Positions 2,833 through 18,076 of a DNA stretch of 50,034 nucleotides are shown here, one piece after another. Within the stretch, counting starts at the first letter, position 1, and each line of letters starts with the position of its first letter. The translations under genes and the position numbers were made by a program. The notes below the pieces were generated by a model. It was given only the letters and a program-made list of their open reading frames with translations. It did no database searches and was not told where the DNA came from. Origin of the DNA: Candidatus Onthoplasma sp. GTDB lineage: Bacteria > Bacillota > Clostridia > Christensenellales > UBA1242. The stretch is taken from NCBI GenBank assembly GCA_050874685.1, contig JBNMLD010000002.1:1-50034 (forward strand). Reading direction: 5' to 3'.

Positions 2833-3717
2833 TTAAAATTTTGGTGTGTACTTACTATCCGCACTTGATAAGTCTTGTGTGTAACAATTCATCATTCCAA
2901 GTTTTATTGCATGGCTCACAACACGCTTATATTCAATAGGTGTCAGTTTGCGATTTATTTCTGGATAGTCCTTTGCCTGATATTGCGGTTCATATTGACT
3001 CATCAAACTCACGATGCAATCTGCACCAAGTTCTTTTGCAACAAAGTCCAAACACTTGATACTATCATCAGTATGAGTTGGCAGAATCAAATGACGAATT
3101 ATCACACCTTTTTTCATCAGTCCATTTTCGAAAATGTTTTTTGGTTGCTGTCTTACCATTTCTTTTATCACTGCTTGATTGTTCTTTACATAATTTGGGG
3201 CTTTGCTATATTTTGACGCCAAATCATCAGATGCATATTTTAAATCGACAAGATAAACATCAACCAAACCTTTCAGCCTTTTTATTGTTTCAACGGTTTC
3301 ATATCCGCCACTGTTCCAAACAACAGGTATTTTAGGTTTATATATTTTCAATGCTTCAATTATTTGTTCAGTGTAATGTGTTGGTGTAACCAGATTTATA
3401 TTTAATGCACCCGCTTGCTCCAATTGCTTAATAATACCAACCAAATCTTCGATAGTTTTATACTCTCCTTTATTCAAATGACTTATCTCATAATTTTGAC
3501 AAAACACACATTTTAGATTACAGCCCGCAAAGAATATTGCACCGCTCCCCTTATCTGATTCAGCCCCACTTATACATGGCTCTTCATAATGGTGCAACAT
3601 AACTTTGCTGATTTTCAATTTGTCAGTCTGCATGCAAAAACCAGCCAGTTTTGTTCTGTCAACATTGCACTGACGTGGACATATATTGCACCTATTTGAT
3701 TGGAAATCTTTTTGCAT
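2833..3717 (-). CDS. radical SAM protein, PflX-like (pyruvate formate-lyase activase-related family)
   Basis: N-terminal CNICPRQC cluster and the canonical radical SAM CNLKCVFCQNY (CxxxCxxC) motif. Confidence 0.8.
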   Translation of the reverse strand: MQKDFQSNRCNICPRQCNVDRTKLAGFCMQTDKLKISKVMLHHYEEPCISGAESDKGSGAIFFAGCNLKCVFCQNYEISHLNKGEYKTIEDLVGIIKQLEQAGALNINLVTPTHYTEQIIEALKIYKPKIPVVWNSGGYETVETIKRLKGLVDVYLVDLKYASDDLASKYSKAPNYVKNNQAVIKEMVRQQPKNIFENGLMKKGVIIRHLILPTHTDDSIKCLDFVAKELGADCIVSLMSQYEPQYQAKDYPEINRKLTPIEYKRVVSHAIKLGMMNCYTQDLSSADSKYTPKF

Positions 3718-3806
3718 GATTAAATTTTAGTTCCAAATCAAGATTTTGTCAATCAATGTTCTACCAATGTGGACAAGCAAATATAATAATAATGAGGTAA
3801 CAAAAA

Positions 3807-4499
3807 ATGAAAAAGAAAATATTAATTTTATTGCTTGCAGTTTGCTGCATTGGATTAACCGCTTGCGGAGGCAAGAATTTTGATTTATCCAATTATTTAA
3901 TTGAAGAAAGACAAAACTTATACACTGCACAAGATGACCTTTACACAACAACTTTCAGTTCTGGTATGCGTGAAGAAAATTATGCCTTTGACGGAATAAA
4001 AAACAATATGGTTGAATTTGGCATTGTAAGCATTTCAAGGCTAGACTCTGCCCCAATGAGCAATGACACATATACATACACTGTTAAAATCAACGACCAA
4101 ACTTACACTGGCGAACTCACAAAAAGTGAAACTGACAATTCTTATTCAGCAGATATCCAAGCCATTGCACCAGCAGACGCAACAGTAAGTGTTCAAATAA
4201 TATTCACTGGTTATAGTTTTAACAAAGAAATGGTCAACTGTTCTTCAACCTTCACTGTGGATAAATCTTCAGCTTTAAAAATTGCAAACAACAACTTAAA
4301 ACAAAATGCTAGTGAACTTCTATCTGATAAAAACACAAAGATAGAAGCAGTAATGAAAATCGTAAAAGATAGCGCAAACACTGAAACAAACAATTACTAT
4401 TGGTATGTTGGCATTGTATCCACAAATGGTGATGTTCTTGGTGTTTTAATTGATAGCGCAAATGGCAATATTATAGCAAAAAAGTTTAGCAGGTGCTAA
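3807..4499 (+). CDS. lipoprotein with a PepSY-like C-terminus
   Basis: Signal peptide MKKKILILLLAVCCIGLTAC with lipobox L-T-A-C. C-terminal YYWYVGIVSTNGDVLGVLIDSANGNIIAKKF resembles a PepSY fold motif. Confidence 0.7.
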   Translation: MKKKILILLLAVCCIGLTACGGKNFDLSNYLIEERQNLYTAQDDLYTTTFSSGMREENYAFDGIKNNMVEFGIVSISRLDSAPMSNDTYTYTVKINDQTYTGELTKSETDNSYSADIQAIAPADATVSVQIIFTGYSFNKEMVNCSSTFTVDKSSALKIANNNLKQNASELLSDKNTKIEAVMKIVKDSANTETNNYYWYVGIVSTNGDVLGVLIDSANGNIIAKKFSRC

Positions 4500-4555
4500 A
4501 CTTTTTTTATCTCTAAATGTAAAAATTTAAACAATAACTTTTAACTTCTATACAT

Positions 4556-4975
4556 CTAACCATTAATAACTTTTTCAACAATATCTTTATTGTCATCAAT
4601 CAAATTGAAAGCATCAATCATAGCCTCGTCTATGTTGCCAGTTTGCAAAAAATCTTTACACTTGTTTACAAAATTTATCCCATCATATCTAAATAATCTT
4701 AAATTGTCTGGGGCGATTTTTAATGACAAATTTAAAATATCGCTAACAGCTTGCCCCATTGCGTCAGAATAAAAATCAAAGAAACGATTATGCCTATTAT
4801 ACATGTTTTTGATACCAATTGCTTTACAAATCCTAATCACACAAATTTCTTTGATTTGTTTTATATATTCAGTTTCTGTTAATTCAGGTTTATCAATTTG
4901 GAAAAAATCACAAATTTTCAAAATGTTTTTTTCTTGCTCATCATAACGAGAGTTATTCGTAACACATAAGTTCAT
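4556..4975 (-). CDS. hypothetical protein (139 aa from the ATG at 4975)
   Basis: ORF with GAGGAA 9 nt upstream of the ATG at 4975 (MNLCVTNNSRY). The track's longer start at 5038 would overlap a promoter-like element. I recognise no family. Confidence 0.55.
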   Translation of the reverse strand: MNLCVTNNSRYDEQEKNILKICDFFQIDKPELTETEYIKQIKEICVIRICKAIGIKNMYNRHNRFFDFYSDAMGQAVSDILNLSLKIAPDNLRLFRYDGINFVNKCKDFLQTGNIDEAMIDAFNLIDDNKDIVEKVING

Positions 4976-4996
4976 ATCTTTTGTTTCCTCAAAAAC

Positions 4997-5038
4997 AATA
5001 TAATATATTTTTGTACAAAAGTCAACGTTTTTGTACAA
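4997..5038 (-). promoter_or_regulatory. sigma70-like promoter with two palindromic TTGTACAA boxes
   Basis: On the minus strand: TTGACT (5025..5020), 17 nt, TATATT (5002..4997). TTGTACAA boxes sit at 5011..5018 and 5031..5038, exactly 20 bp apart, bracketing the -35. Confidence 0.5.
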
Positions 5039-5043
5039 AAAAG

Positions 5044-5385
5044 TTAGATATTTGAAACTTTGGCAAATTCTTGATGTTCTTGTTCATATCTCAATTTCAT
5101 TTCTTTGTACTTTTCACTCAAATCGAATATGTATTTCTGCTTACCTTCCAAAGTAAGGCTATTGTAATATTTATTGTCAATAAGTTCTTTGATTGGATTG
5201 ATAACAATTGTATCACTGTCCAAAATCCTACACACCCGCTCGTAAAGATTTTGTTCCTTTTCACTCAACCCAATTTTTGCATAAGGTAATTGCTCAAAAA
5301 CCGATTTCTCCCTATTATAATTTCTCATTCTGCTTTTAGCATCTCTAGCCATAAAATATAATTTACCTTTGATTTTCTTTCTCAT
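5044..5385 (-). CDS. hypothetical basic/acidic helical protein (113 aa)
   Basis: ORF preceded by AAGGGGGA. Charged, coiled-coil-like composition. I recognise no family. Confidence 0.55.
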   Translation of the reverse strand: MRKKIKGKLYFMARDAKSRMRNYNREKSVFEQLPYAKIGLSEKEQNLYERVCRILDSDTIVINPIKELIDNKYYNSLTLEGKQKYIFDLSEKYKEMKLRYEQEHQEFAKVSNI

Positions 5386-5707
5386 AAAATCCCCCTTAAA
5401 TAAAAACTATTTAAAAACAAAATCATAATACTAAAAACACAAAGTTAGACAAAATCTTTTATGTTAAAATTATTGTCATATTTATGCTATTTGTGCTATT
5501 TAAACTTAATTTTGTCGATTTTCACTTTTGGGTGATTTTGTTGAAATGATTTTTTAATCAAAATATAATATTACTCGTAACTATTCAAATATCTTTCAAA
5601 TAAAAAAACATGATAAATAATCATGCTTTATATTTTAAAATTTTGTATAGATATAAATGGATTTGTTTATCAACACACATATAAGTTATTTGTCGTTAAA
5701 GACACAA

Positions 5708-5733
5708 CAAAAAAAGCAGGCATACAACCTGCT
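5708..5733 (-). terminator. rho-independent terminator of the SPFH/zinc-ribbon operon
   Basis: Minus strand: AGCAGG-ttgtatg-CCTGCT followed by TTTTTTT, 8 nt after the stop at 5741. Confidence 0.75.
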
Positions 5734-5740
5734 TTATTAA

Positions 5741-6178
5741 CTAAAATTTGTGTCCACAATGAGCACAATATTCTGCTTCAGGGTCACTTTTGCCTTTGCA
5801 AAGTGGACAAACTCGTTTTTCCTTTGGTGTTTGTTTTGCTCCGCAATGTGTGCAAAATTCTTCATCTTTATTTAACAATTTGCCACATTTGTCGCAAAGT
5901 CTGTCGCCGTCAACACCTTTTGCATAACCAATATCTCTAACACTCTTCCTGTATCCAGACATACCTGCACTGACAATCAACATCGACACGCCAAACATAA
6001 GCAAACATAATGCAACAATGCCAGCAACAACTACAATGATATATTTTGACCAATGTGACATTTTGATAACTGCCATAGCACCGCCAAAGCCTGCACCAAC
6101 AGCCAAAAGAATCATCAAAACTGAAACAAGGATTAATGCTGTTTTTCCATAACGAAGTTCTTTATACCTAAAACACAT
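5741..6178 (-). CDS. membrane protein with two C-terminal zinc ribbons
   Basis: Two predicted TM helices, then CDKCG-x10-CTHCG and CPLC-x10-CAHCG. GGTGA RBS lies 11 nt after the upstream gene's stop. Confidence 0.7.
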   Translation of the reverse strand: MCFRYKELRYGKTALILVSVLMILLAVGAGFGGAMAVIKMSHWSKYIIVVVAGIVALCLLMFGVSMLIVSAGMSGYRKSVRDIGYAKGVDGDRLCDKCGKLLNKDEEFCTHCGAKQTPKEKRVCPLCKGKSDPEAEYCAHCGHKF

Positions 6179-6189
6179 ATTTCACCAAC

Positions 6190-7305
6190 CTAAACTTTTT
6201 CTCCGCAATCTGGGCAGAATTTTGCCTTTGCAGAAAGAGTTTTTCCACATTTTGCACAAACTTTTCCAACTTCAAGTTTGTTGCCACAATTAACACAGAA
6301 TTTGCTTCCCTTTGTGATAGGTTCACCACATTTAGGACAAGATAATGCTTGTGTTGCACCACATTCTGGGCAGAATTTTGATTTGCCAGGGATAGAAGCA
6401 CCACATTTAACGCATTGAACAGTAACTTGACGTTTGCTATCTTTTGCTCCTGCAATTGCTTCGCCAAAAACGTTGCCCATTTGCACACCAGCACCTAAAC
6501 CAACACCCATGCCAGCCAACCCTGCACCTGCTGGATTTTTTGCAGATTCTTCAATAGCATTCGCTGCCTTGAATTGTGTATATGTGCCCATTTTGTCGCT
6601 CATAACACCCATTTTTGTGCGTTCATCAAGCATTTTCTCAACATCTTCTGGCAATGACAAGTTTTCAATAACAAAGTTAGAAACTTTTAAGCCCAAAGGC
6701 GCAAATTCTTCTTTTGCGTGTTGTTCAACAGCTTTGCCAAGTTCTTTATATTTTGATGCCAAGTCAAGGGCTGAAACCTTGCTTTCAGCAATAACGTCTG
6801 TAAGCAATTGAATAAGGCTTGATTTGTATTGAGTTGCAACATCTCCAACACGGTAAATTGGGCTTGTGCCAAAACATTCACGCATGAATTTTGTTGGGTC
6901 ATTTACTTGGATAGAGAATGTACCAAAACCACGCAAACGCACATTGCCGAAGTCCACATCACGCATCATGATAGGGTTTTGAGTACCCCACTTTAACCCC
7001 ATAAAACGCTTTGTGTTAATGAAATAAACTTCTGCCTTGATACGACTATTGCCAAGTGTTGGCAAACTCAACATCTTTGTCAAGAAAGGAATATTTTCAG
7101 TTGAAAGTTTATAAGTGCCAGCACCAAACACGTCTGCAATTTGACCTTTATGAACAAACACTGCAACTTGGCTTTCTCTAACAACCAAAGTTGAACTGTT
7201 CATAATTTCAGCGCCATTTTCCATTGGATAGCGATAAACGATTACATCAGCACTTGAATCCTTCCATTCAATAACTGACAAGAATTGTTTTTTAAATAAT
7301 CCCAT
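6190..7305 (-). CDS. SPFH (stomatin/prohibitin-like, COG4260/YdjI-type) protein with three C-terminal zinc ribbons
   Basis: N-terminus MGLFKKQFLSVIEWKD...VYRYP...STLVVRESQVAVFVHKGQI is typical of the YdjI-like SPFH family. A Gly/Ala linker is followed by 3x CxxC-x10-CxxC. AAGGAG RBS. Confidence 0.8.
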   Translation of the reverse strand: MGLFKKQFLSVIEWKDSSADVIVYRYPMENGAEIMNSSTLVVRESQVAVFVHKGQIADVFGAGTYKLSTENIPFLTKMLSLPTLGNSRIKAEVYFINTKRFMGLKWGTQNPIMMRDVDFGNVRLRGFGTFSIQVNDPTKFMRECFGTSPIYRVGDVATQYKSSLIQLLTDVIAESKVSALDLASKYKELGKAVEQHAKEEFAPLGLKVSNFVIENLSLPEDVEKMLDERTKMGVMSDKMGTYTQFKAANAIEESAKNPAGAGLAGMGVGLGAGVQMGNVFGEAIAGAKDSKRQVTVQCVKCGASIPGKSKFCPECGATQALSCPKCGEPITKGSKFCVNCGNKLEVGKVCAKCGKTLSAKAKFCPDCGEKV

Positions 7306-7424: not shown

Positions 7425-8183
7425 TTATTTTTTAGCATTTGTCTTATTTGTTTTTAATTTTAACTTTTGACTAAAGCGAGTTAAAAATTCGTCAATCTTT
7501 GTTTGATATTTAACACTAAAATAAAACAGCAAAGCCATGCTTATAGCAATCAAAAACCAAACAGCCCAGCCCCAGCCAGAAAAAGGAATAATTGAACCAC
7601 TTCCAAACAGAACAGTGCAAGCAATACCTATTGACCGACAAATCACATTGCTCCAAAAGAAAAATGAAAAACTCATATTTGTAAGTCCCGCCACCACACA
7701 TAAAATGTCATCAGGGAACATTGGGAACAACATCATCAAAAAGAATACGTATTTACCTTCACTTATAATTGAAATCCATTTATTTGTGCTTTCTTCTCCT
7801 ACTATCCAATGTAGAAACTTTCTGCCAGCCTTTCTACCCAGCCAAAAATTAAAAAGACTGCCAATCATTATTGCAATAAAAGATAATAAAAATGCCTTCC
7901 ATTTTGGAAATATAAGCACGCCCGTCATCGTCACAACAATTGCAGGGATTTGCAATACCGTGGTTTGCAAAAATTGCAAAAGCATAAATATCAAAGAGCT
8001 AAAAATTCCACCATGTTGCACAACTTGACGCAATTTTTCTATTGAATTGATTTTGTCCCACCAACCACACTTTTTTATTATTAAAATGGCTATTAAAATT
8101 AATAGTGCAAGTCCAACAAAAAAAACAAGCGCACGCAAAATCGTTGTGCCAAAGCCATGCTTGTTCTCTTTGTTTTTACTCAT
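7425..8183 (-). CDS. TVP38/TMEM64 (DedA-related) family membrane protein
   Basis: Multi-TM protein with the family-typical segment ...LQIPAIVVTMTGVLIFPKWKAFLLSFIAIMIGSLFNFWLGRKAGRKF.... Confidence 0.75.
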   Translation of the reverse strand: MSKNKENKHGFGTTILRALVFFVGLALLILIAILIIKKCGWWDKINSIEKLRQVVQHGGIFSSLIFMLLQFLQTTVLQIPAIVVTMTGVLIFPKWKAFLLSFIAIMIGSLFNFWLGRKAGRKFLHWIVGEESTNKWISIISEGKYVFFLMMLFPMFPDDILCVVAGLTNMSFSFFFWSNVICRSIGIACTVLFGSGSIIPFSGWGWAVWFLIAISMALLFYFSVKYQTKIDEFLTRFSQKLKLKTNKTNAKK

Positions 8184-8294: not shown

Positions 8295-9311
8295 TTAAAT
8301 AAATTTTTCTGTTTCTGCAATTATTTTATCCATCATTTTTACTGCTTCAACTGGATATCTGCCTGAAGCAGATTCGCCAGATAGCATAACAGCATTTGTG
8401 CCGTCATATAGGGCATTCGCCACATCACTAACTTCCGCCCTTGTTGGTCGCTTGTTGTAAATCATGCTTTCCATCATTTCAGTTGCAACAATAACAAACT
8501 TACCTTTTCTTACCGTTTTAGCAATCATGTCTTTTTGAATATGTGGCAATTTTTCCATTGCAACTTCAACGCCTAAATCTCCCCTTGCAACCATTATGCC
8601 GTCACAAGATGATATAATTTCATCAAGATTTTTAACACCCAATGCTGATTCTATTTTTGCAATAACTTTCATTTTGCCATTATTTTCAGCAATAAATTTT
8701 TTAACTACCGAACAATCTTTTTTGCTGTTTACAAAACTGATTGCCACCATGTCAAATTTATTTTTAATTGCCCACAAAATATCCTCTTTATCTTTGTCGT
8801 TAAGATATTTTATATTAAGTTTAAGGTTTGGTATAAACAGACTTTTGTTGTTGCTTAATGTGCCAGAATTTTTTGCTACACATATAATCTCACTATCGGT
8901 TTTATCTTCAACTTTAAATTCAAGCAAACCGTCATTTGCCAAGATTTTGCTGTCGATTTCTATATTCTTAACAATACTTGGCTGATTTAAAGCAACACGT
9001 TCAGCATTACCAACCACATTTTTTGCAGAGAAAATGAACTGCTGACCCTTTTTTATTTCTACCTTACCGTTTTCAAACTTTTTAACTCTTATTTCTGGGC
9101 CACGGGTATCAAGCATAAGTTGAAGTTTTATGCCTGTTTCTTTTTTCAATTGTTTAACATTGGCTACAATGGTGTCCATATCTTGCCTTACAGCATGCGA
9201 AAGATTGATTCTAACAATATCCATGCCAGCCTGCGCCATTTTTTTCATTGTTTGATATGCTATACTGCTAGGCCCAATTGTTGCCACAATTTGTGTTTTA
9301 TTATTTTTCAT
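8295..9311 (-). CDS. pyk: pyruvate kinase, short form lacking the C-terminal regulatory domain
   Basis: [38 protein letters not shown] and LSGESA motifs. The protein ends right after the A-domain (338 aa). Confidence 0.9.
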
Positions 9312-9443: not shown

Positions 9444-9471
9444 TTGAAATTTTTACCATTTATGCTATAAT
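9444..9471 (+). promoter_or_regulatory. promoter of ssrA
   Basis: TTGAAA (9444..9449), 16 nt, TGcTATAAT (extended -10, 9463..9471), about 10 nt before the tmRNA 5' end. Confidence 0.7.
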
Positions 9472-9481
9472 AATTATATAT

Positions 9482-9834
9482 GGGGGTGAAACAGTTTCGA
9501 CTGTTATGCTTCGATTTGATACGCACGTCGAGAGACATCTCGTTAAATATGCGCTTGTTTTTGTACAAGTTTAAATAAATCAAAACAATAACGAACTTGC
9601 TTACGCTGCTTAATGCGTAGCCGTCAGTTTAGCAGTACCGATATGCTAAAATCTGATGTCAGTTATCGGTTAAAGATTGATTTCGTTGCCTAGCAAATTC
9701 AATTTACTTTTAGGCTAGAAATTTGCAAGTGTTGGTGTGAGTTGCAAATTTTAAGATATACTCATCAACTAAACGTGTAGTGTATGATTTCCAAGTATGG
9801 CAGGACATGGGTGCAAATCCCATCATCTCCACCA
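9482..9834 (+). ncRNA. ssrA: tmRNA (SsrA)
   Basis: 5' GGGGGTG...GTTTCGAC. The 3' end is GGGTGCAAATCCCATCATCTCCACCA (T-arm plus acceptor), with a G3:U wobble in the acceptor stem. The tag reading frame ends ...AAC AAT AAC GAA CTT GCT TAC GCT GCT TAA (..NNNELAYAA*, stop at 9611..9613). Confidence 0.95.
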
Positions 9835-9854
9835 AATGTTAAAAGTTAGAAAAA

Positions 9855-9891
9855 AGTAGTTAGAACCATCTAACTACTTTTCTTATTTTTT
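9855..9891 (+). terminator. rho-independent terminator of ssrA
   Basis: AGTAGTTAGA-acca-TCTAACTACT followed by TTTCTTATTTTTT. Confidence 0.85.
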
Positions 9892-10163
9892 GATTTTCAC
9901 CAACCATTTTGTCAGGTACTAAATATGATAAATCTTTGCCTGGTCTCCAGCAAAATCTATATGCTTCAATTTTAGCAATATATTAATCTAGCGATGTGCT
10001 AGAAAACCATATTAAAACATATCTCTGTTACTTAAAAAATATTATTATGCAAATTTTTGATTAACTCAAAAACGACATAATATTTAATTTTGTTTAGCCC
10101 TATCATAAGGCAAATTTATATCAGTCAGCATAAATTGTTATATTGCTGATTTAAAAAACGGTA

Positions 10164-10192
10164 TTGACAAGCAGGTATCCCCATGTTAAAAT
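10164..10192 (+). promoter_or_regulatory. near-consensus promoter of the 51-aa/PIN-like cassette
   Basis: TTGACA (10164..10169), 17 nt, TGtTAAAAT (extended -10 ending at 10192). Confidence 0.7.
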
Positions 10193-10213
10193 ACCACCAA
10201 CAAAGGAGCATTT

Positions 10214-10369
10214 ATGAGCAACTTAATATTAGCAACCGCATCAAGGAACAGCACTCAAGTTCAATTTGAAAAATCTGCAAAAATGATGCAAGCAAAAACC
10301 TATGAACAACAAAACATAGAATTTGCAAATTTTATTTTAAAACATTCTAAAAAAGGTGGTAAACAATAA
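10214..10369 (+). CDS. small protein (51 aa), candidate antitoxin/partner of the downstream gene
   Basis: It is below the 60-aa cutoff of the ORF track. AAAGGAG lies 6 nt before the ATG. It reads MSNLILATASRNSTQVQFEKSAKMMQAKTYEQQNIEFANFILKHSKKGGKQ*. Its stop overlaps the next start as TAATG. Confidence 0.5.
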   Translation: MSNLILATASRNSTQVQFEKSAKMMQAKTYEQQNIEFANFILKHSKKGGKQ

Positions 10370-11214
10370 TGAAATTTTCAGGGTCAGGTTTTTATCATGA
10401 AAACACATACATTGCTTTAGACAGTGATTTGATTATTTGTTTTGCAAACATGTATGATAGTTATAAAAAAACTAATTTAGTTTCAAAAAGTTACCTAAAT
10501 AAAAAGTTATTTGCCGTTCAAAACAATTTTGACGAATGCAAATTTATATTTGATTGCATATTAGACGGCTCAATCAAGCCAGTCGTTACCAATTCAATAT
10601 TCAATGAAATCAGCGGTAGCATTTATGGCAGGTCAAGTGACAATAAAATGGTTATTGACTTTTTAACAACATTCTGCTACACACCAAAAACCAATGAATT
10701 ATTATCAAAGCGCAGAAGAGATAAAATTCAAGTTTTGGCAAAAGCATATTGCTTGCCATACAAAAACAAACAAGGCAAAACATTTGATGCTCCAATGAAT
10801 TTTACATACAATGCCTTTCACGACATGACAGTGCCTGAAAACGATGCCGTTGCAATGGCTGAAGCAACTTGCTTAAATGTATATTTCTTGACATATAACG
10901 GTAAACATTTTGTTTGGCGCAACAAAGGCTATTGGAACTTTGATGACGATGCTCCAGCAAAAGAAAGAACTGTTGGTATTGTTGAAATAAACAAACAAAA
11001 AGGCTATTTTACAACAACCAAAATTGGCACAGAAATTGTTCCAAAACCTATGCACTTGCGTGATTTTGTGACAGCAATCAAAAACTGTGATGGTGGGTTG
11101 CACTATTTTGATGTTGCGCAACCTGATGAAGATAGGCTTGTAAAACTTGCTGGTCAAATCAATTACGAAGAATTTAAAGAAGAATTAGACAACAGTGTAA
11201 ACGATAATTTTTAA
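10369..11214 (+). CDS. PIN-like (VapC-like) nuclease-domain protein with a C-terminal extension of about 95 aa
   Basis: PIN-type signature spacing read by eye: YIALDSDLII (first Asp), PVVTNSIFNEISG (Glu) and ENDAVAMAEATCLNVYFLTYNGKHF (the D.xIAA.A...L.T.N..F motif). It is translationally coupled to the upstream small ORF. Confidence 0.45.
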   Translation: MKFSGSGFYHENTYIALDSDLIICFANMYDSYKKTNLVSKSYLNKKLFAVQNNFDECKFIFDCILDGSIKPVVTNSIFNEISGSIYGRSSDNKMVIDFLTTFCYTPKTNELLSKRRRDKIQVLAKAYCLPYKNKQGKTFDAPMNFTYNAFHDMTVPENDAVAMAEATCLNVYFLTYNGKHFVWRNKGYWNFDDDAPAKERTVGIVEINKQKGYFTTTKIGTEIVPKPMHLRDFVTAIKNCDGGLHYFDVAQPDEDRLVKLAGQINYEEFKEELDNSVNDNF

Positions 11215-11265: not shown

Positions 11266-11296
11266 AAAAAGGCCCTTCAAATTAAGAGCCTTTTTT
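11266..11296. terminator. bidirectional terminator between the PIN-like gene and smpB
   Basis: AAAAAGGCCCTT-caaatt-AAGAGCCTTTTT hairpin (one mismatch), flanked by an A-run and a T-run. Confidence 0.7.
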
Positions 11297-11319: not shown

Positions 11320-11790
11320 TTAATTTTGCCTACGTAAATCTCTTTCAATCTGTTTTGTTTTTAATGTCTCTCGCTTATCTGCAAGTTTTTTGCCACGTGC
11401 AACCGCCAATTCAATTTTAAGATTGCTTCCACTGAAATATGCTTTTAAAGGTACAAGTGTTAGCCTTTCTTGTTCAATTTGCTTTTTTAATTTTTGAATT
11501 TGCACTTTATGCAACAATAATTTTCTATCTCTTCTAGTGTTATCGCCAACTCTGCCAGCATCAAAACTGTTTGCATATTCTTTTATATAACTGTTACGCA
11601 AATAGACTTCATCATTTTTAATATATCCATAGCAATCCACCAAAGAAAAATGCCCTGCACGCACAGATTTGATTTCATCTCCTGTCAAAACGATGCCTGC
11701 TTCCAAGGTTTCTAAAATTGTATATTCAAACCTAGCACGTCTATTTTCCGCCACCAATGTTTGATTTGTTTTTATGTTTTTTTCTGCCAT
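11320..11790 (-). CDS. smpB: SsrA-binding protein SmpB
   Basis: NRRARFEY...EAGIVLTGDEIKS...RDRKLLLHK...GKKLADKRE; typical SmpB length and motifs. Confidence 0.95.
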   Translation of the reverse strand: MAEKNIKTNQTLVAENRRARFEYTILETLEAGIVLTGDEIKSVRAGHFSLVDCYGYIKNDEVYLRNSYIKEYANSFDAGRVGDNTRRDRKLLLHKVQIQKLKKQIEQERLTLVPLKAYFSGSNLKIELAVARGKKLADKRETLKTKQIERDLRRQN

Positions 11791-11980: not shown

Positions 11981-13207
11981 TTATTGCTCTTCTTTTATCA
12001 ATACAATTGTTTGTGTTGAAATTTGAAGTTCTTCAACATTGTTTGTAATGTTTGCTTGGTGACCTTCAGTTTGATAAACACCAACTCTTTCAGCATTTGC
12101 ACTTGAAATTGTTGCATAATTGATGATAACTGTTGGTTCGCCACCTGGATAACCGCAAGCATCAACAACGATTGCATCACCAGTTGCTGTGCAACCACCA
12201 AATCTTGTTGTGTGGTCTACTTTGTTGCCATTGCCAACAAGTGTTGCGCCATTGATTGTTGTAACACCACTTTTGATGTAAAGTGCAGTATTAGCTTCAA
12301 TTTCAGCCACACCGATATTTAATGCACCACTATTTGGCATATAAACGCCAATTTCGCCACCTTGAACTTTTGCTCCGTCCATGATGTTGATTGTGTAATC
12401 GCCACGGCCTTCAGTTCCATTACCGCTGACAGCAATTGTTGAACCATTAACTTTTGCTGTGCCATACAAATCAAGTTGTGAATTTGCTTGTTCAATTGTT
12501 ACTGCATTTTTGTTTGTGAATTTATTGTTGTAGTTTGCAAAGATTGTAAAATCAGCATCAACTGTAAGTTTACCACCATTTTGAATCCAAACACCAAAAC
12601 CATCAGCAACAAGTGAACCATTCAACAATCTCAATTGTTTGTTTGCTGTACGATAAGCCAAATCAAAACCACTAACTTTAGCCATAATTGTGTGTCCACC
12701 AAAGTCAATAGTGATATCTTTATCAACAGATACTGTTGCAGGCATTTCATAATCTTTCAACAATCTAATGCTTGCGCCGTCTGTCAAACCGTCAACAACT
12801 GCAGTTGTCAAATTGTCAAAATATACCAAAGTTCCATTTGAATTTACTTCGATAACCGCTTCTTCACTAACTCTGCCACATTCGCAAAGATATCCTTGAT
12901 AATTGTGGTCTTCTCTATCTGTCAATTCACGGCCACAGGTGCCACAAACTTGCCAGTGTTGAGTTGATGTGTTTACCCAAGTGATGTCATTGTGTTGTTC
13001 AAGGTCAGATTTCTCTGTAGAGTGTTCACAAGTTGCATCATGCCAGTGATATGTTTCATCACTTGACCACACTGTTGAATAGGTGTGTTCATGAGCATTT
13101 TGTTTTCCTGGATCTTCCTCATTGTCACAAGCGGTAAGCATGAACAATGAAGCTACCATCAAGCAAATCGCAAAGATGAAACCAAATAATGATTTTCTTT
13201 TTGTCAT
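11981..13207 (-). CDS. lipoprotein with a His/Cys/Trp-rich N-terminal module and beta-helix-like repeats
   Basis: Signal peptide with lipobox LTAC. Next comes HEHTY..ETYHWHDATCEH..HWQVCGTCG..CECG. A Gly/Asn/Thr-rich repetitive beta-strand region then follows (parallel beta-helix-like). Confidence 0.65.
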   Translation of the reverse strand: MTKRKSLFGFIFAICLMVASLFMLTACDNEEDPGKQNAHEHTYSTVWSSDETYHWHDATCEHSTEKSDLEQHNDITWVNTSTQHWQVCGTCGRELTDREDHNYQGYLCECGRVSEEAVIEVNSNGTLVYFDNLTTAVVDGLTDGASIRLLKDYEMPATVSVDKDITIDFGGHTIMAKVSGFDLAYRTANKQLRLLNGSLVADGFGVWIQNGGKLTVDADFTIFANYNNKFTNKNAVTIEQANSQLDLYGTAKVNGSTIAVSGNGTEGRGDYTINIMDGAKVQGGEIGVYMPNSGALNIGVAEIEANTALYIKSGVTTINGATLVGNGNKVDHTTRFGGCTATGDAIVVDACGYPGGEPTVIINYATISSANAERVGVYQTEGHQANITNNVEELQISTQTIVLIKEEQ

Positions 13208-16196: not shown

Positions 16197-16305
16197 AAAT
16201 CCTCCGCAAAATGTTAGATAATGTTGAATGATAAGGTCAATTCAACTTTTGTGCTTTGCGTATTATAGCACACACACAAAATATTGACAAGTAAAAATTC
16301 TAAAA

Positions 16306-16603: not shown

Positions 16604-18076
16604 TTATTTTAGCAAGGTTGTACCTTCAAAAAATTTGTTTGGTTCAACACCCATAAGGTCAAGGAAAGTTGGAGCGACATCTTTAAGCCCACCTTGTGGT
16701 TTTAATTTGTGATTTTCACTGTCAACAACTGCAAACATCACTTTGTTTAAAGTGTGTGCATAGTGCGCTTCTCCATTAGGATATCTCATTTGTTCGCTGT
16801 TACCATGGTCAGCGGTTATAATCATAAAATAACCATATTTTTTTGCTGTTTCAGCAATCATTTTCAACCTTCCGTCAAGATATTCAAGTGAAGTAACAAC
16901 CGCATCATAATCGCCTGTATGACCAATCATATCAGGGTTTGAAAAGTTCACAATAATTGCATCATATCCGTCTTTGATTGCCTCTACTGTTTCATCAGCA
17001 ATTTTGCCTGCTTGCATGAGTGGTGTTTTGTTGAATTTATCAATTTTAATTGTTGGCACATGAATACGGTCTTCCCCTTTGAAAGGTGGTTCGTATCCGC
17101 CATTTAAAAAGTAAGTTACATGGGCATATTTTGTTGATTCGCTTATTTTAACCTGTTTCAATCCCAACTCTGACAAATATTCACTTAAAGTATTTTTTAC
17201 AACTGTTTTAGGATACAAAATATCTGTTTTTGCAGTTGCAACATCTGCCATTGTAGCAATTTTTGCTGGTCTGCTTGACATAATTTTGACAATTTGACGC
17301 AATCTATCTTCCCTAAAGTTAAAGAACAACAGATAATCATTTTCTGTCAAACTGAATTGTTCTTTTGTTTGAACATGAGTAGGCAAAACATATTCGTCTG
17401 TGTTGCCAATTTTATGCTGATTTGTTAAATAGTTTTCAATCTCTTCGTTGCTTATACCATTCACATCATCGAACATCGCTTTAACAGCCAATTCTGTGCG
17501 GTCATAATTGCTTTCCCTGTCCATTGCATACAATCTGCCACCAATGCTAGCAATTTCACAATTCGGTATCTCTTGCATGTTTTTACGCAATACTTTTAAA
17601 TATTTTAAACTATCCGCACTCCCACAATCTCTTCCGTCTGTGATAAGGTGCAAATAAATATGTTTTGCCTGTGTAGCAAATACTTTCATCAATTCATAGC
17701 AATGTTCAATGTTGCTATGAACATTTTTGTCACTCATCAAACCTATCAAATGGATATCTCCATTATGTTGTTTAACATAATTTTCAACTTTCAACAAAAC
17801 TTGGTTTTGCCTAAATTTGCCAGACAGAATTTCATCTCTAATAAGTTTTGCTGTTGATGGCACAATTCTGCCAGAACCAATTGTCAAATGTCCAACTTCA
17901 CTTCCGCCCATTTCCCCAGCAAAAAGCCCAACCGCTTCACCATCAGTTTTAAGCAATGAGATATTACCTTTTAAACTATCTAAAAAAGGTGTTTTTGCAT
18001 TTGCAACAGCATTGAACTTATCTGGCTTGCCTTCTCCGTATCCATCTAAAACAATCAATATACCCTTTTTGAACAT
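16604..18076 (-). CDS. gpmI: 2,3-bisphosphoglycerate-independent phosphoglycerate mutase
   Basis: LIVLDGYG, GGSEVGHLTIGSGR, ITDGRD and TADHGN motifs. 490 aa. Confidence 0.93.
   Translation of the reverse strand: MFKKGILIVLDGYGEGKPDKFNAVANAKTPFLDSLKGNISLLKTDGEAVGLFAGEMGGSEVGHLTIGSGRIVPSTAKLIRDEILSGKFRQNQVLLKVENYVKQHNGDIHLIGLMSDKNVHSNIEHCYELMKVFATQAKHIYLHLITDGRDCGSADSLKYLKVLRKNMQEIPNCEIASIGGRLYAMDRESNYDRTELAVKAMFDDVNGISNEEIENYLTNQHKIGNTDEYVLPTHVQTKEQFSLTENDYLLFFNFREDRLRQIVKIMSSRPAKIATMADVATAKTDILYPKTVVKNTLSEYLSELGLKQVKISESTKYAHVTYFLNGGYEPPFKGEDRIHVPTIKIDKFNKTPLMQAGKIADETVEAIKDGYDAIIVNFSNPDMIGHTGDYDAVVTSLEYLDGRLKMIAETAKKYGYFMIITADHGNSEQMRYPNGEAHYAHTLNKVMFAVVDSENHKLKPQGGLKDVAPTFLDLMGVEPNKFFEGTTLLK

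Follow-up and report, generated by a model that had tools for sequence, protein, structure and literature searches.

We analysed a 50,034-nucleotide stretch of DNA from Candidatus Onthoplasma sp. (contig JBNMLD010000002.1 of assembly GCA_050874685.1; here called the window), in which a compact two-gene cassette (10164-11214) lies between ssrA, the gene for transfer-messenger RNA (tmRNA), and smpB. An earlier sequence-only reading had placed the cassette exactly in the convergent gap between these two genes, which is where it sits (Table 1). The first open reading frame (ORF) encodes a small protein of 51 amino acids (aa), and the second encodes a 281-aa protein with a predicted VapC-like PIN nuclease fold; they meet at a TAATG junction, in which the TAA stop of the small ORF and the ATG start of the larger one have a single base in common. 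What is new at this locus is an architectural variant of PIN-based two-gene toxin-antitoxin-like modules, belonging to an unannotated family.

The cassette carries a promoter of its own. Downstream of the tmRNA terminator, the sequence-only reading had recognized a near-consensus TTGACA-17-TGtTAAAAT, and this element matches the consensus at 11 of 12 positions in addition to an extended -10 TG. It is top-class for this genome. Six promoters of such quality occur on the two strands of the 50-kb window, compared with 0.22 expected from shuffled sequence, so calling the cassette strongly promoted is justified at the sequence level. Among the remaining five, one stands upstream of ssrA. To judge from the ORF map, the other four stand just upstream of large minus-strand genes in the part of the window that holds ribosomal-protein and glycolytic genes. 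These four are on the minus strand, at 16290, 16573, 33927 and 46208; on the same map, the first two are near a 490-aa minus-strand ORF (16604-18076), and each of the other two shortly precedes a minus-strand gene of the ribosomal-protein region. At the far end of the cassette, the terminator scan lists the GC-rich hairpin on the minus strand, and its plus strand reads AAAAAGGCCC...GAGCCTTTTTT.

Both ORFs are real genes under purifying selection and form one conserved operon. We gathered related loci from assemblies and, by a genome scan with the close-homologue alignment, from species-representative genomes. The large protein has ten close homologues (49-97% identity, none of them named), and the genomes that bear them are metagenome-assembled genomes (MAGs) of uncultured human-gut Clostridia, one labelled Christensenella sp. 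UBA4626. Nine related loci keep the anatomy of the operon, with TTGACA or a one-mismatch variant placed 17 nucleotides from TGnTAnAAT, a strong Shine-Dalgarno site, an ORF of 50-60 aa and a TAATG junction, replaced in two loci by a one-base gap. Ratios of nonsynonymous to synonymous substitution rates (dN/dS, Nei-Gojobori) are 0.10-0.43 for the small ORF and 0.05-0.14 for the large ORF, and strain variants on gut metagenome contigs show no difference in the small ORF and seven in the large one, six of which are synonymous. The 51-aa ORF that the sequence-only reading had picked out, with its overlap onto the 281-aa ORF, is thus a real, coupled partner gene that is conserved across the family. 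Because the ORFs are intact, selection is purifying and the strong promoter is conserved, the pair must have been kept for its function, whatever its origin. On the strain contigs of runs X6, X22 and X23, we also noted about 16 differing positions in the 9865-10211 spacer and none in 10212-10919, a stretch that covers the small ORF and continues through two thirds of the PIN ORF.

Table 1. Features of the ssrA-smpB interval of the window, with the flanking genes.
Feature	Position	Strand	Details
ssrA promoter-like site	9444-9471	+	TTGAAA-16-TATAAT with TG; context, outside the cassette
tmRNA gene (ssrA)	9482-9834	+	Rfam RF00023, 119.4 bits, E=3.6e-46, full-length
ssrA intrinsic terminator hairpin	9852-9881	+	13-bp stem and T-run; also an inverted repeat
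Non-coding AT-rich spacer	9882-10163	none	26% GC, ~280 bp
Cassette promoter	10164-10192	+	-35 TTGACA 10164-10169; 17-nt spacer; TG 10184-10185; -10 TAAAAT 10187-10192
Shine-Dalgarno site of the small ORF, AAAGGAG	10202-10208	+	From sequence; conserved across loci
ORF of the 51-aa small protein	10214-10369	+	Putative antitoxin/partner
Shine-Dalgarno site of the 281-aa ORF, AAGGTGG	10353-10359	+	Inside the tail codons of the small ORF
ORF of the 281-aa PIN nuclease	10369-11214	+	
PIN domain, residues 1-185	10369-10923	+	AF2 model, Foldseek, family invariants, hhalign
Putative catalytic codon D18	10420-10422		
Putative catalytic codon E80	10606-10608		
Putative catalytic codon D159	10843-10845		
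Putative catalytic codon T175	10891-10893		
Putative catalytic codon N177	10897-10899		
Putative catalytic codon H181	10909-10911		
C-terminal alpha/beta extension, residues 186-281, and stop codon	10924-11214	+	
GC-rich hairpin with T-runs on both strands	11266-11295	none	Bidirectional terminator common to the cassette and smpB
smpB	11320-11790	-	Convergent with the cassette; Pfam SmpB E=2.4e-49

The large protein belongs to a sizeable family. An exhaustive HMMER scan of 1.84 billion representatives (cut-off E<=1e-3) delineates at least 103 clusters at 50% identity, most of them with proteins of 235-260 aa that are 25-38% identical; with the wide alignment as query, a profile search of a database of 5.8 billion proteins yielded few distant members. 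In all ten family clusters that we checked, the source gave no name. From a family alignment of 53 sequences (24-71% identity), D18, F98, Y127, D159 and N177 emerge as invariant, and E80, T175, R200 and N208 as at least 90% conserved. The PIN/VapC motifs quoted in the sequence-only reading fall on five of these invariant or near-invariant residues, namely D18, E80, D159, T175 and N177. With regard to the four acidic residues of a PIN active site, D18, E80 and D159 are conserved; at the fourth position, 181, the family consensus (TxNxKDF) has D, but the window protein and its nearest relatives have H.

Structure prediction agrees with this assignment. AlphaFold (AF2) run with an 11-sequence alignment gave a predicted local distance difference test (pLDDT) score of 71, and with the 53-sequence alignment it gave a pLDDT of 90.8 and a predicted TM-score (pTM) of 0.89. 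Searching the PDB with Foldseek returned PIN domains near-exclusively: the best match was R. felis VapC2 (3zvk_A, E=3.2e-3, probability 1.00), followed by the PIN-like PcrIIC1 and S. flexneri VapC (5ecw and 5ecd, probability 0.99, target-normalised TM-score 0.58-0.61), and nearly all of the roughly 35 hits after the top ones are PIN proteins, with VapCs of H. influenzae and M. tuberculosis, Utp24 and SMG6 further down. Probabilities for the VapC matches are 0.98-1.00 and their target-normalised TM-scores 0.56-0.61, and the first, lower-pLDDT model gave an unchanged picture. Aligning the family profile with S. flexneri VapC (a sequence that we checked to be identical to 3tnd_A) by hhalign produced a short, weak local alignment (E=0.017) in exact register, placing D159 on the catalytic D98 of VapC, T175 and N177 on T114 and N116, and position 181 on E119. 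A sequence-profile search of the PDB with the close-homologue alignment had no match. A few family members also give Pfam matches to PIN, PIN_3 and PIN_12 that stay below threshold. On the strength of the model and the family invariants, the 281-aa protein has a VapC-like PIN fold, as the sequence-only reading had proposed, and its active site looks intact.

The same reading had described a long insert and an extra C-terminal domain of about 95 aa, and the model bears both out. Relative to a 130-aa VapC, the window protein has a longer loop at residues 36-47, a beta-hairpin insert of about 30 aa at 128-157 and an alpha/beta region of about 96 aa at 186-281. All three additions are conserved features of the family; the insert holds a conserved A141-P142-M143, and R200, G203 and N208 are conserved family-wide in the C-terminal extension. 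Possible roles of this C-terminal domain are substrate binding, oligomerisation and regulation.

The small partner is conserved in its own right. Among close loci, its core reads K-[ST]-Y-E-Q-Q-x-x-E-[FY]-A-x-F-[IL]-[LM]-K (in the window, K-T-Y-E-Q-Q-N-x-E-F-A-x-F-I-L-K), and it is followed by a basic KKGG tail whose codons (AAAAAAGGTGG) double as the Shine-Dalgarno site of the nuclease gene. Because of this double use, the tail may be constrained at the RNA level, and we set it aside as an uncertain candidate for a functional element of the protein. Turning to distant members for which upstream DNA was available (L010-L013 and L016 from metagenomes, L019-L024 from assemblies), we found at each locus a short ORF that overlaps or abuts the nuclease start, 47-64 aa long except in L016, where it is 87 aa. 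These proteins have a core, [ED]-[FY]-[AN]-x-F-[IVA]-K-x-N-x-C-[KR], and then a basic tail; the ORF of L016, which has the most divergent nuclease, fits this core weakly. Over all the other loci examined, close and distant, the small proteins have the motif [ED][FY]AxF[IV]K in common. Conservation among the small proteins is confined to the C-terminal 20-35 residues or so. Given that a homologous small ORF precedes the nuclease in every locus examined, the pair is the unit of inheritance. Judged by its length, the small protein is too short to be a canonical VapB, which combines a DNA-binding domain with a tail that binds the toxin. In some loci, the promoter is flanked by short inverted repeats (GGTATT/AATACC in the window, TTGACAA/TTGTCAA in L005); these are unconserved and to be expected by chance in AT-rich DNA.

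Comparison with VapBC and FitAB (PF01850, PF13470) shows how close the pair comes to known systems. As in those systems, translation couples a small gene to the PIN-fold gene that it precedes behind a single promoter, and the distribution among genomes is patchy; the best structural matches are VapC toxins (3zvk, 5ecw, 5ecd, 6nkl). The conserved motifs also agree: an Asp follows strand 1, a Glu lies in the helix that comes after strand 2, another Asp is found at the helix preceding strand 4, and strand 4 leads into T-x-N-x-x-(D/H)-F. The pair departs from VapBC in its nuclease, which has 281 aa and two domains where VapC is a single domain of about 130-150 aa, and in its partner, which is 47-64 aa long across the family and lacks an AbrB, RHH, HTH or Phd domain; the nuclease also reaches no Pfam PIN gathering score, no conserved operator was found and, in the window protein, a His takes the place of the fourth acid. 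The classic VapBC layout that had been suggested for the cassette therefore stands as far as a coupled small gene and a PIN protein are concerned and falls short of strict membership, and the caveats attached to it, a toxin of twice the usual size and a small protein with no obvious DNA-binding motif, were well placed. What we have is a PIN-based, VapBC-like pair.

Another family offers a parallel for the nuclease itself. PF16289 (PIN_12, formerly DUF4935) joins an N-terminal VapC-like PIN domain to an uncharacterised alpha/beta C-terminal region (Matelska et al. 2017, PMC5499597), as the window protein appears to do. Within the family of the window protein, P0040 aligns with the first half of the PIN_12 profile (E=7.2e-5), and another member gives a weaker match. 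However, the match is below threshold (23.7 bits vs 32), is restricted to two of the 53 members and to the PIN half, and is missing for the window protein; the tie is a resemblance, not membership.

The surroundings of the pair in related genomes are informative about its history. Cassette-bearing genomes have the gene order PK(-) ssrA(+) [0-3 kb variable] small+PIN(+) smpB(-) (lipoprotein) rnr(-) secG(-), where PK is pyruvate kinase and the variable genes take the position of the spacer in the window. No genes intervene between ssrA and the pair in the window, L005, L006 and L009. Elsewhere, this segment holds barnase and barstar (L001, 4671-5533), barstar without barnase (3973-4251) together with small genes (L007), or three unrelated genes, including a 312-aa gene at 4010-4948 that resembles the DUF1848 gene of L025 (L008). 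On the ssrA-proximal side of the pair in L002 (51-2115), there is a tyrosine integrase with three small genes (95, 100 and 112 aa); the 112-aa protein resembles the L007 protein encoded at 4272-4610, and the contig ends before ssrA, so the borders of the element lie outside the sequence. In L006, smpB is not adjacent, and in L007 it lies between ssrA and the pair (smpB 5149-5634, pair 5810-6822) and is divergent from the pair, which indicates a local rearrangement of the interval.

Relatives that lack the cassette fill the interval differently. We compared five loci (L025-L029) found through SmpB orthologues that are 74-80% identical. Four of them (L025-L028) keep the synteny of the cassette genomes, secG-rnr-smpB ... 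convergent ssrA ... PK, and L029 keeps secG-rnr-smpB, with no tmRNA or PK in the 5 kb fetched downstream of smpB. Beyond smpB, all five carry other genes (DUF1848, TraX, CrtO, barnase-like and others), and a profile search of all six-frame ORFs found no PIN-family gene in any of them, while the positive controls were found. In L028, the ssrA-smpB interval contains a barnase-like/barstar pair (6266-7161), a second RNase-plus-inhibitor pair in the same slot. The DUF1848 gene of L025 (312 aa, 5615-6672) is preceded by a 39-aa ORF that ends on its first base, another pairing of a small ORF with a larger gene.

A neighbour-joining tree of RNase R unites the cassette loci in one clade, with the cassette-less L025 and L027 nested inside it and three of three outgroups without the cassette. 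The simplest history, as read from this tree, would be a single gain and then two or more losses. In genomes outside the clade, the pair adjoins cca, rluB/plsC, nrdR or a LOR-domain operon. In L019/L020, it starts 10 nt after the same-strand gene for the CCA-adding enzyme (PolyA_pol, 3611-5711), and 1.8 kb downstream of it lies a MazF/PemK toxin gene with a small upstream gene (7507-8059). Searches for a duplicate of the ssrA 3' end, as an attachment (att)-like repeat, found none in the window or the related loci (eight loci searched), and no integrase is present between ssrA and smpB or elsewhere in the window. These comparisons argue that the 3' side of ssrA is a hypervariable accessory-gene slot in this lineage and that the pair is one dispensable occupant; because the interval content varies, cassette-less relatives are syntenic and the contexts outside the clade are unrelated, they also speak against an obligatory partnership with tmRNA-SmpB. 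Two suggestions had been made about the placement. That it might be functional with respect to tmRNA-SmpB is not supported, since distant members are found elsewhere and syntenic relatives with 74-80% identical SmpB carry other genes and no PIN gene. That it might reflect an ssrA insertion hotspot fits better in the form of a variable slot, although an integrase or att repeat is not seen in the window.

We propose, with moderate confidence, that the pair is a type II toxin-antitoxin-like module. The large protein would act as a metal-dependent PIN endoribonuclease that cleaves an RNA, and the co-translated small protein would neutralise this putative toxin. Its conserved amphipathic C-terminal helix would sit in the PIN active-site groove, as the C-termini of VapB and FitA do in the VapC-like group (PMC5499597). 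Because the partner lacks a DNA-binding domain and no conserved operator was found, transcription is probably constitutive and control post-translational; autoregulation is probably absent, to judge from these sequence features. The distribution is patchy in the manner of toxin-antitoxin (TA) systems, with unrelated contexts outside the clade and cassette-less members within it. The position between ssrA and smpB would then reflect one acquisition into a hypervariable slot, with vertical inheritance and occasional loss thereafter.

Several observations weigh against this proposal. At the level of the nuclease, H181 replaces the fourth catalytic acid in the window protein, and the Foldseek E-values are modest (1e-2 to 1e-3). 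The window protein stays below the Pfam gathering cut-off (PIN_3, 14.1 bits vs 27); the best subthreshold scores in the family are 23.7 bits vs 32 for PIN_12 and 17.9 vs 23.6 for PIN, and batch Pfam scans of family members gave only two subthreshold, partial PIN-family matches. NCBIfam (E=0.025) and PHROG (E=0.24) returned chance-level matches only for the large protein, and PADLOC matched neither protein at E up to 1. The 51-aa protein has no Pfam, NCBIfam or PHROG domain, hence no AbrB, RHH, HTH or Phd match, and a search across loci for a conserved operator palindrome found none. No phage or plasmid relatives came to light when a family member was used as tblastn query on the GenBank phage and PLSDB plasmid collections, or in an IMG/VR scan, so these searches give no sign that the pair moves on such elements. 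When we sought RNA-seq evidence, we retrieved only DNA-type metagenome contigs with flat depth. Finally, strong purifying selection and vertical retention across a genus-/family-level clade also fit a housekeeping role.

Among the alternatives, an anti-phage defence module of the abortive-infection type, in which a PIN effector is unleashed when the C-terminal domain or the partner senses infection, is unlikely in our assessment. It draws on the hypervariability of the ssrA-smpB slot (barnase/barstar, an integrase with small genes, other accessory genes) and on the patchy distribution. A nuclease with an added domain, driven constitutively by a strong promoter, is in line with many defence effectors, and many TA modules also serve in defence; the defence reading is compatible with a toxin-antitoxin mechanism. 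It is weakened by the lack of a PADLOC match, by a neighbourhood free of known defence genes in the window and by the absence of relatives in phage collections that would suggest an arms race; a Foldseek search against viral structures (BFVD) gave nothing significant. We consider it quite improbable that the pair is instead left-over cargo, now decaying or neutral and functionless in its present place, from a mobile element once inserted into the 3' end of ssrA. Like ssrA 3'-end genomic islands, the pair lies 3' of ssrA, the classic side for island integration, in an interval whose content differs between close relatives, and one relative (L002) has an integrase and small genes on the ssrA-proximal side of the pair. 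Unlike such islands, the window has no integrase, att duplication (no ssrA 3'-end duplicate is seen at any locus) or compositional shift, the cassette having a GC content of 33% against 34% for the genome, and inheritance within the clade is vertical. The intact ORFs, the purifying selection in all loci and the conserved strong promoter also argue against decay, and we saw neither frameshifted nor promoter-less copies, nor the pair inside intact att-bearing elements.

Improbable, too, is a nuclease dedicated to RNA processing or quality control that has a small regulatory subunit and works with trans-translation, perhaps cutting mRNA or tRNA on stalled ribosomes or processing tmRNA. The synteny PK-ssrA-[pair]-smpB-(lipoprotein)-rnr holds in several species, down to 49-50% PIN identity, dN/dS is low, the promoter ranks with those of ssrA and the ribosomal operons, and one distant member follows a CCA-adding-enzyme gene at a distance of 10 nt. 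There is also a precedent, the START (RatA/YfjG) and RnfH (RatB/YfjF) pair conserved beside smpB in beta- and gamma-proteobacteria (PMC1779556). Like the window pair, it is a two-gene module immediately beside smpB/ssrA, but its START and ubiquitin-like folds include no PIN domain and the proteins are unrelated. One of its products, RatA, has been reported to be a ribosome-directed toxin. The RatA/RnfH genes diverge from smpB, have a promoter region in common with it and occur almost throughout their clade, whereas the window pair is convergent, has its own promoter and is dispensable. What counts against such a role is that distant family members reside away from ssrA/smpB, that cassette-less genomes are nested within the clade and outgroups lack the cassette despite ssrA/smpB/rnr synteny, that smpB is non-adjacent in L006 and on the other side of the pair in L007, and that unrelated accessory genes fill the ssrA-smpB interval of relatives. 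Given these comparative data, cooperation of the nuclease with tmRNA-SmpB seems unlikely. Its boldest form, which we regard as highly improbable, is an RNA surveillance device linked to trans-translation: the C-terminal domain would dock on stalled ribosomes, SmpB or tmRNA, the 51-aa protein would gate the activity, and the pair would be retained beside ssrA, smpB and rnr to feed or process rescue substrates. A milder reading could be a new TA architecture in which the antitoxin is a single toxin-binding helix and regulation falls to the extra domain of the toxin.

The neighbouring genes have features of their own. ARAGORN reported no tmRNA in the window, despite the Rfam match at 9482-9834, and automatic annotation across the lineage may be affected likewise; the tag frame of this tmRNA ends in N-E-L-A-Y-A-A-stop (AACGAACTTGCTTACGCTGCTTAA, about 9594-9617). 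The pyruvate kinase gene adjoining ssrA (8295-9311) encodes only 338 aa, without the C-terminal PK_C domain; in the more distant relatives L026 and L028, the enzyme has 471-480 aa with PK_C. Between smpB and rnr lies a gene for a predicted lipoprotein of 408 aa (11981-13207), whose N-terminus is rich in Cys and His (H-x-H, C-E-H and C-x-x-C motifs) and which is far more variable among relatives than its neighbours are (44-91% identity, 328-408 aa).

Overall, this analysis brings out a PIN-nuclease family that lacks annotation, numbers at least 103 clusters at 50% identity and comes with an obligatory small partner; so far, it is confined to uncultured low-GC gut and rumen Firmicutes. The analysis also identifies the convergent ssrA-smpB interval of this clade as a variable accessory slot, occupied in different genomes by barnase/barstar, DUF1848, TraX or integrase cargo, which is useful for the annotation of MAGs. 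If the pair is a toxin-antitoxin module, it would raise the question of how expression and activation are controlled, and it would extend the VapBC theme by a minimal antitoxin without a DNA-binding domain and a two-domain toxin.

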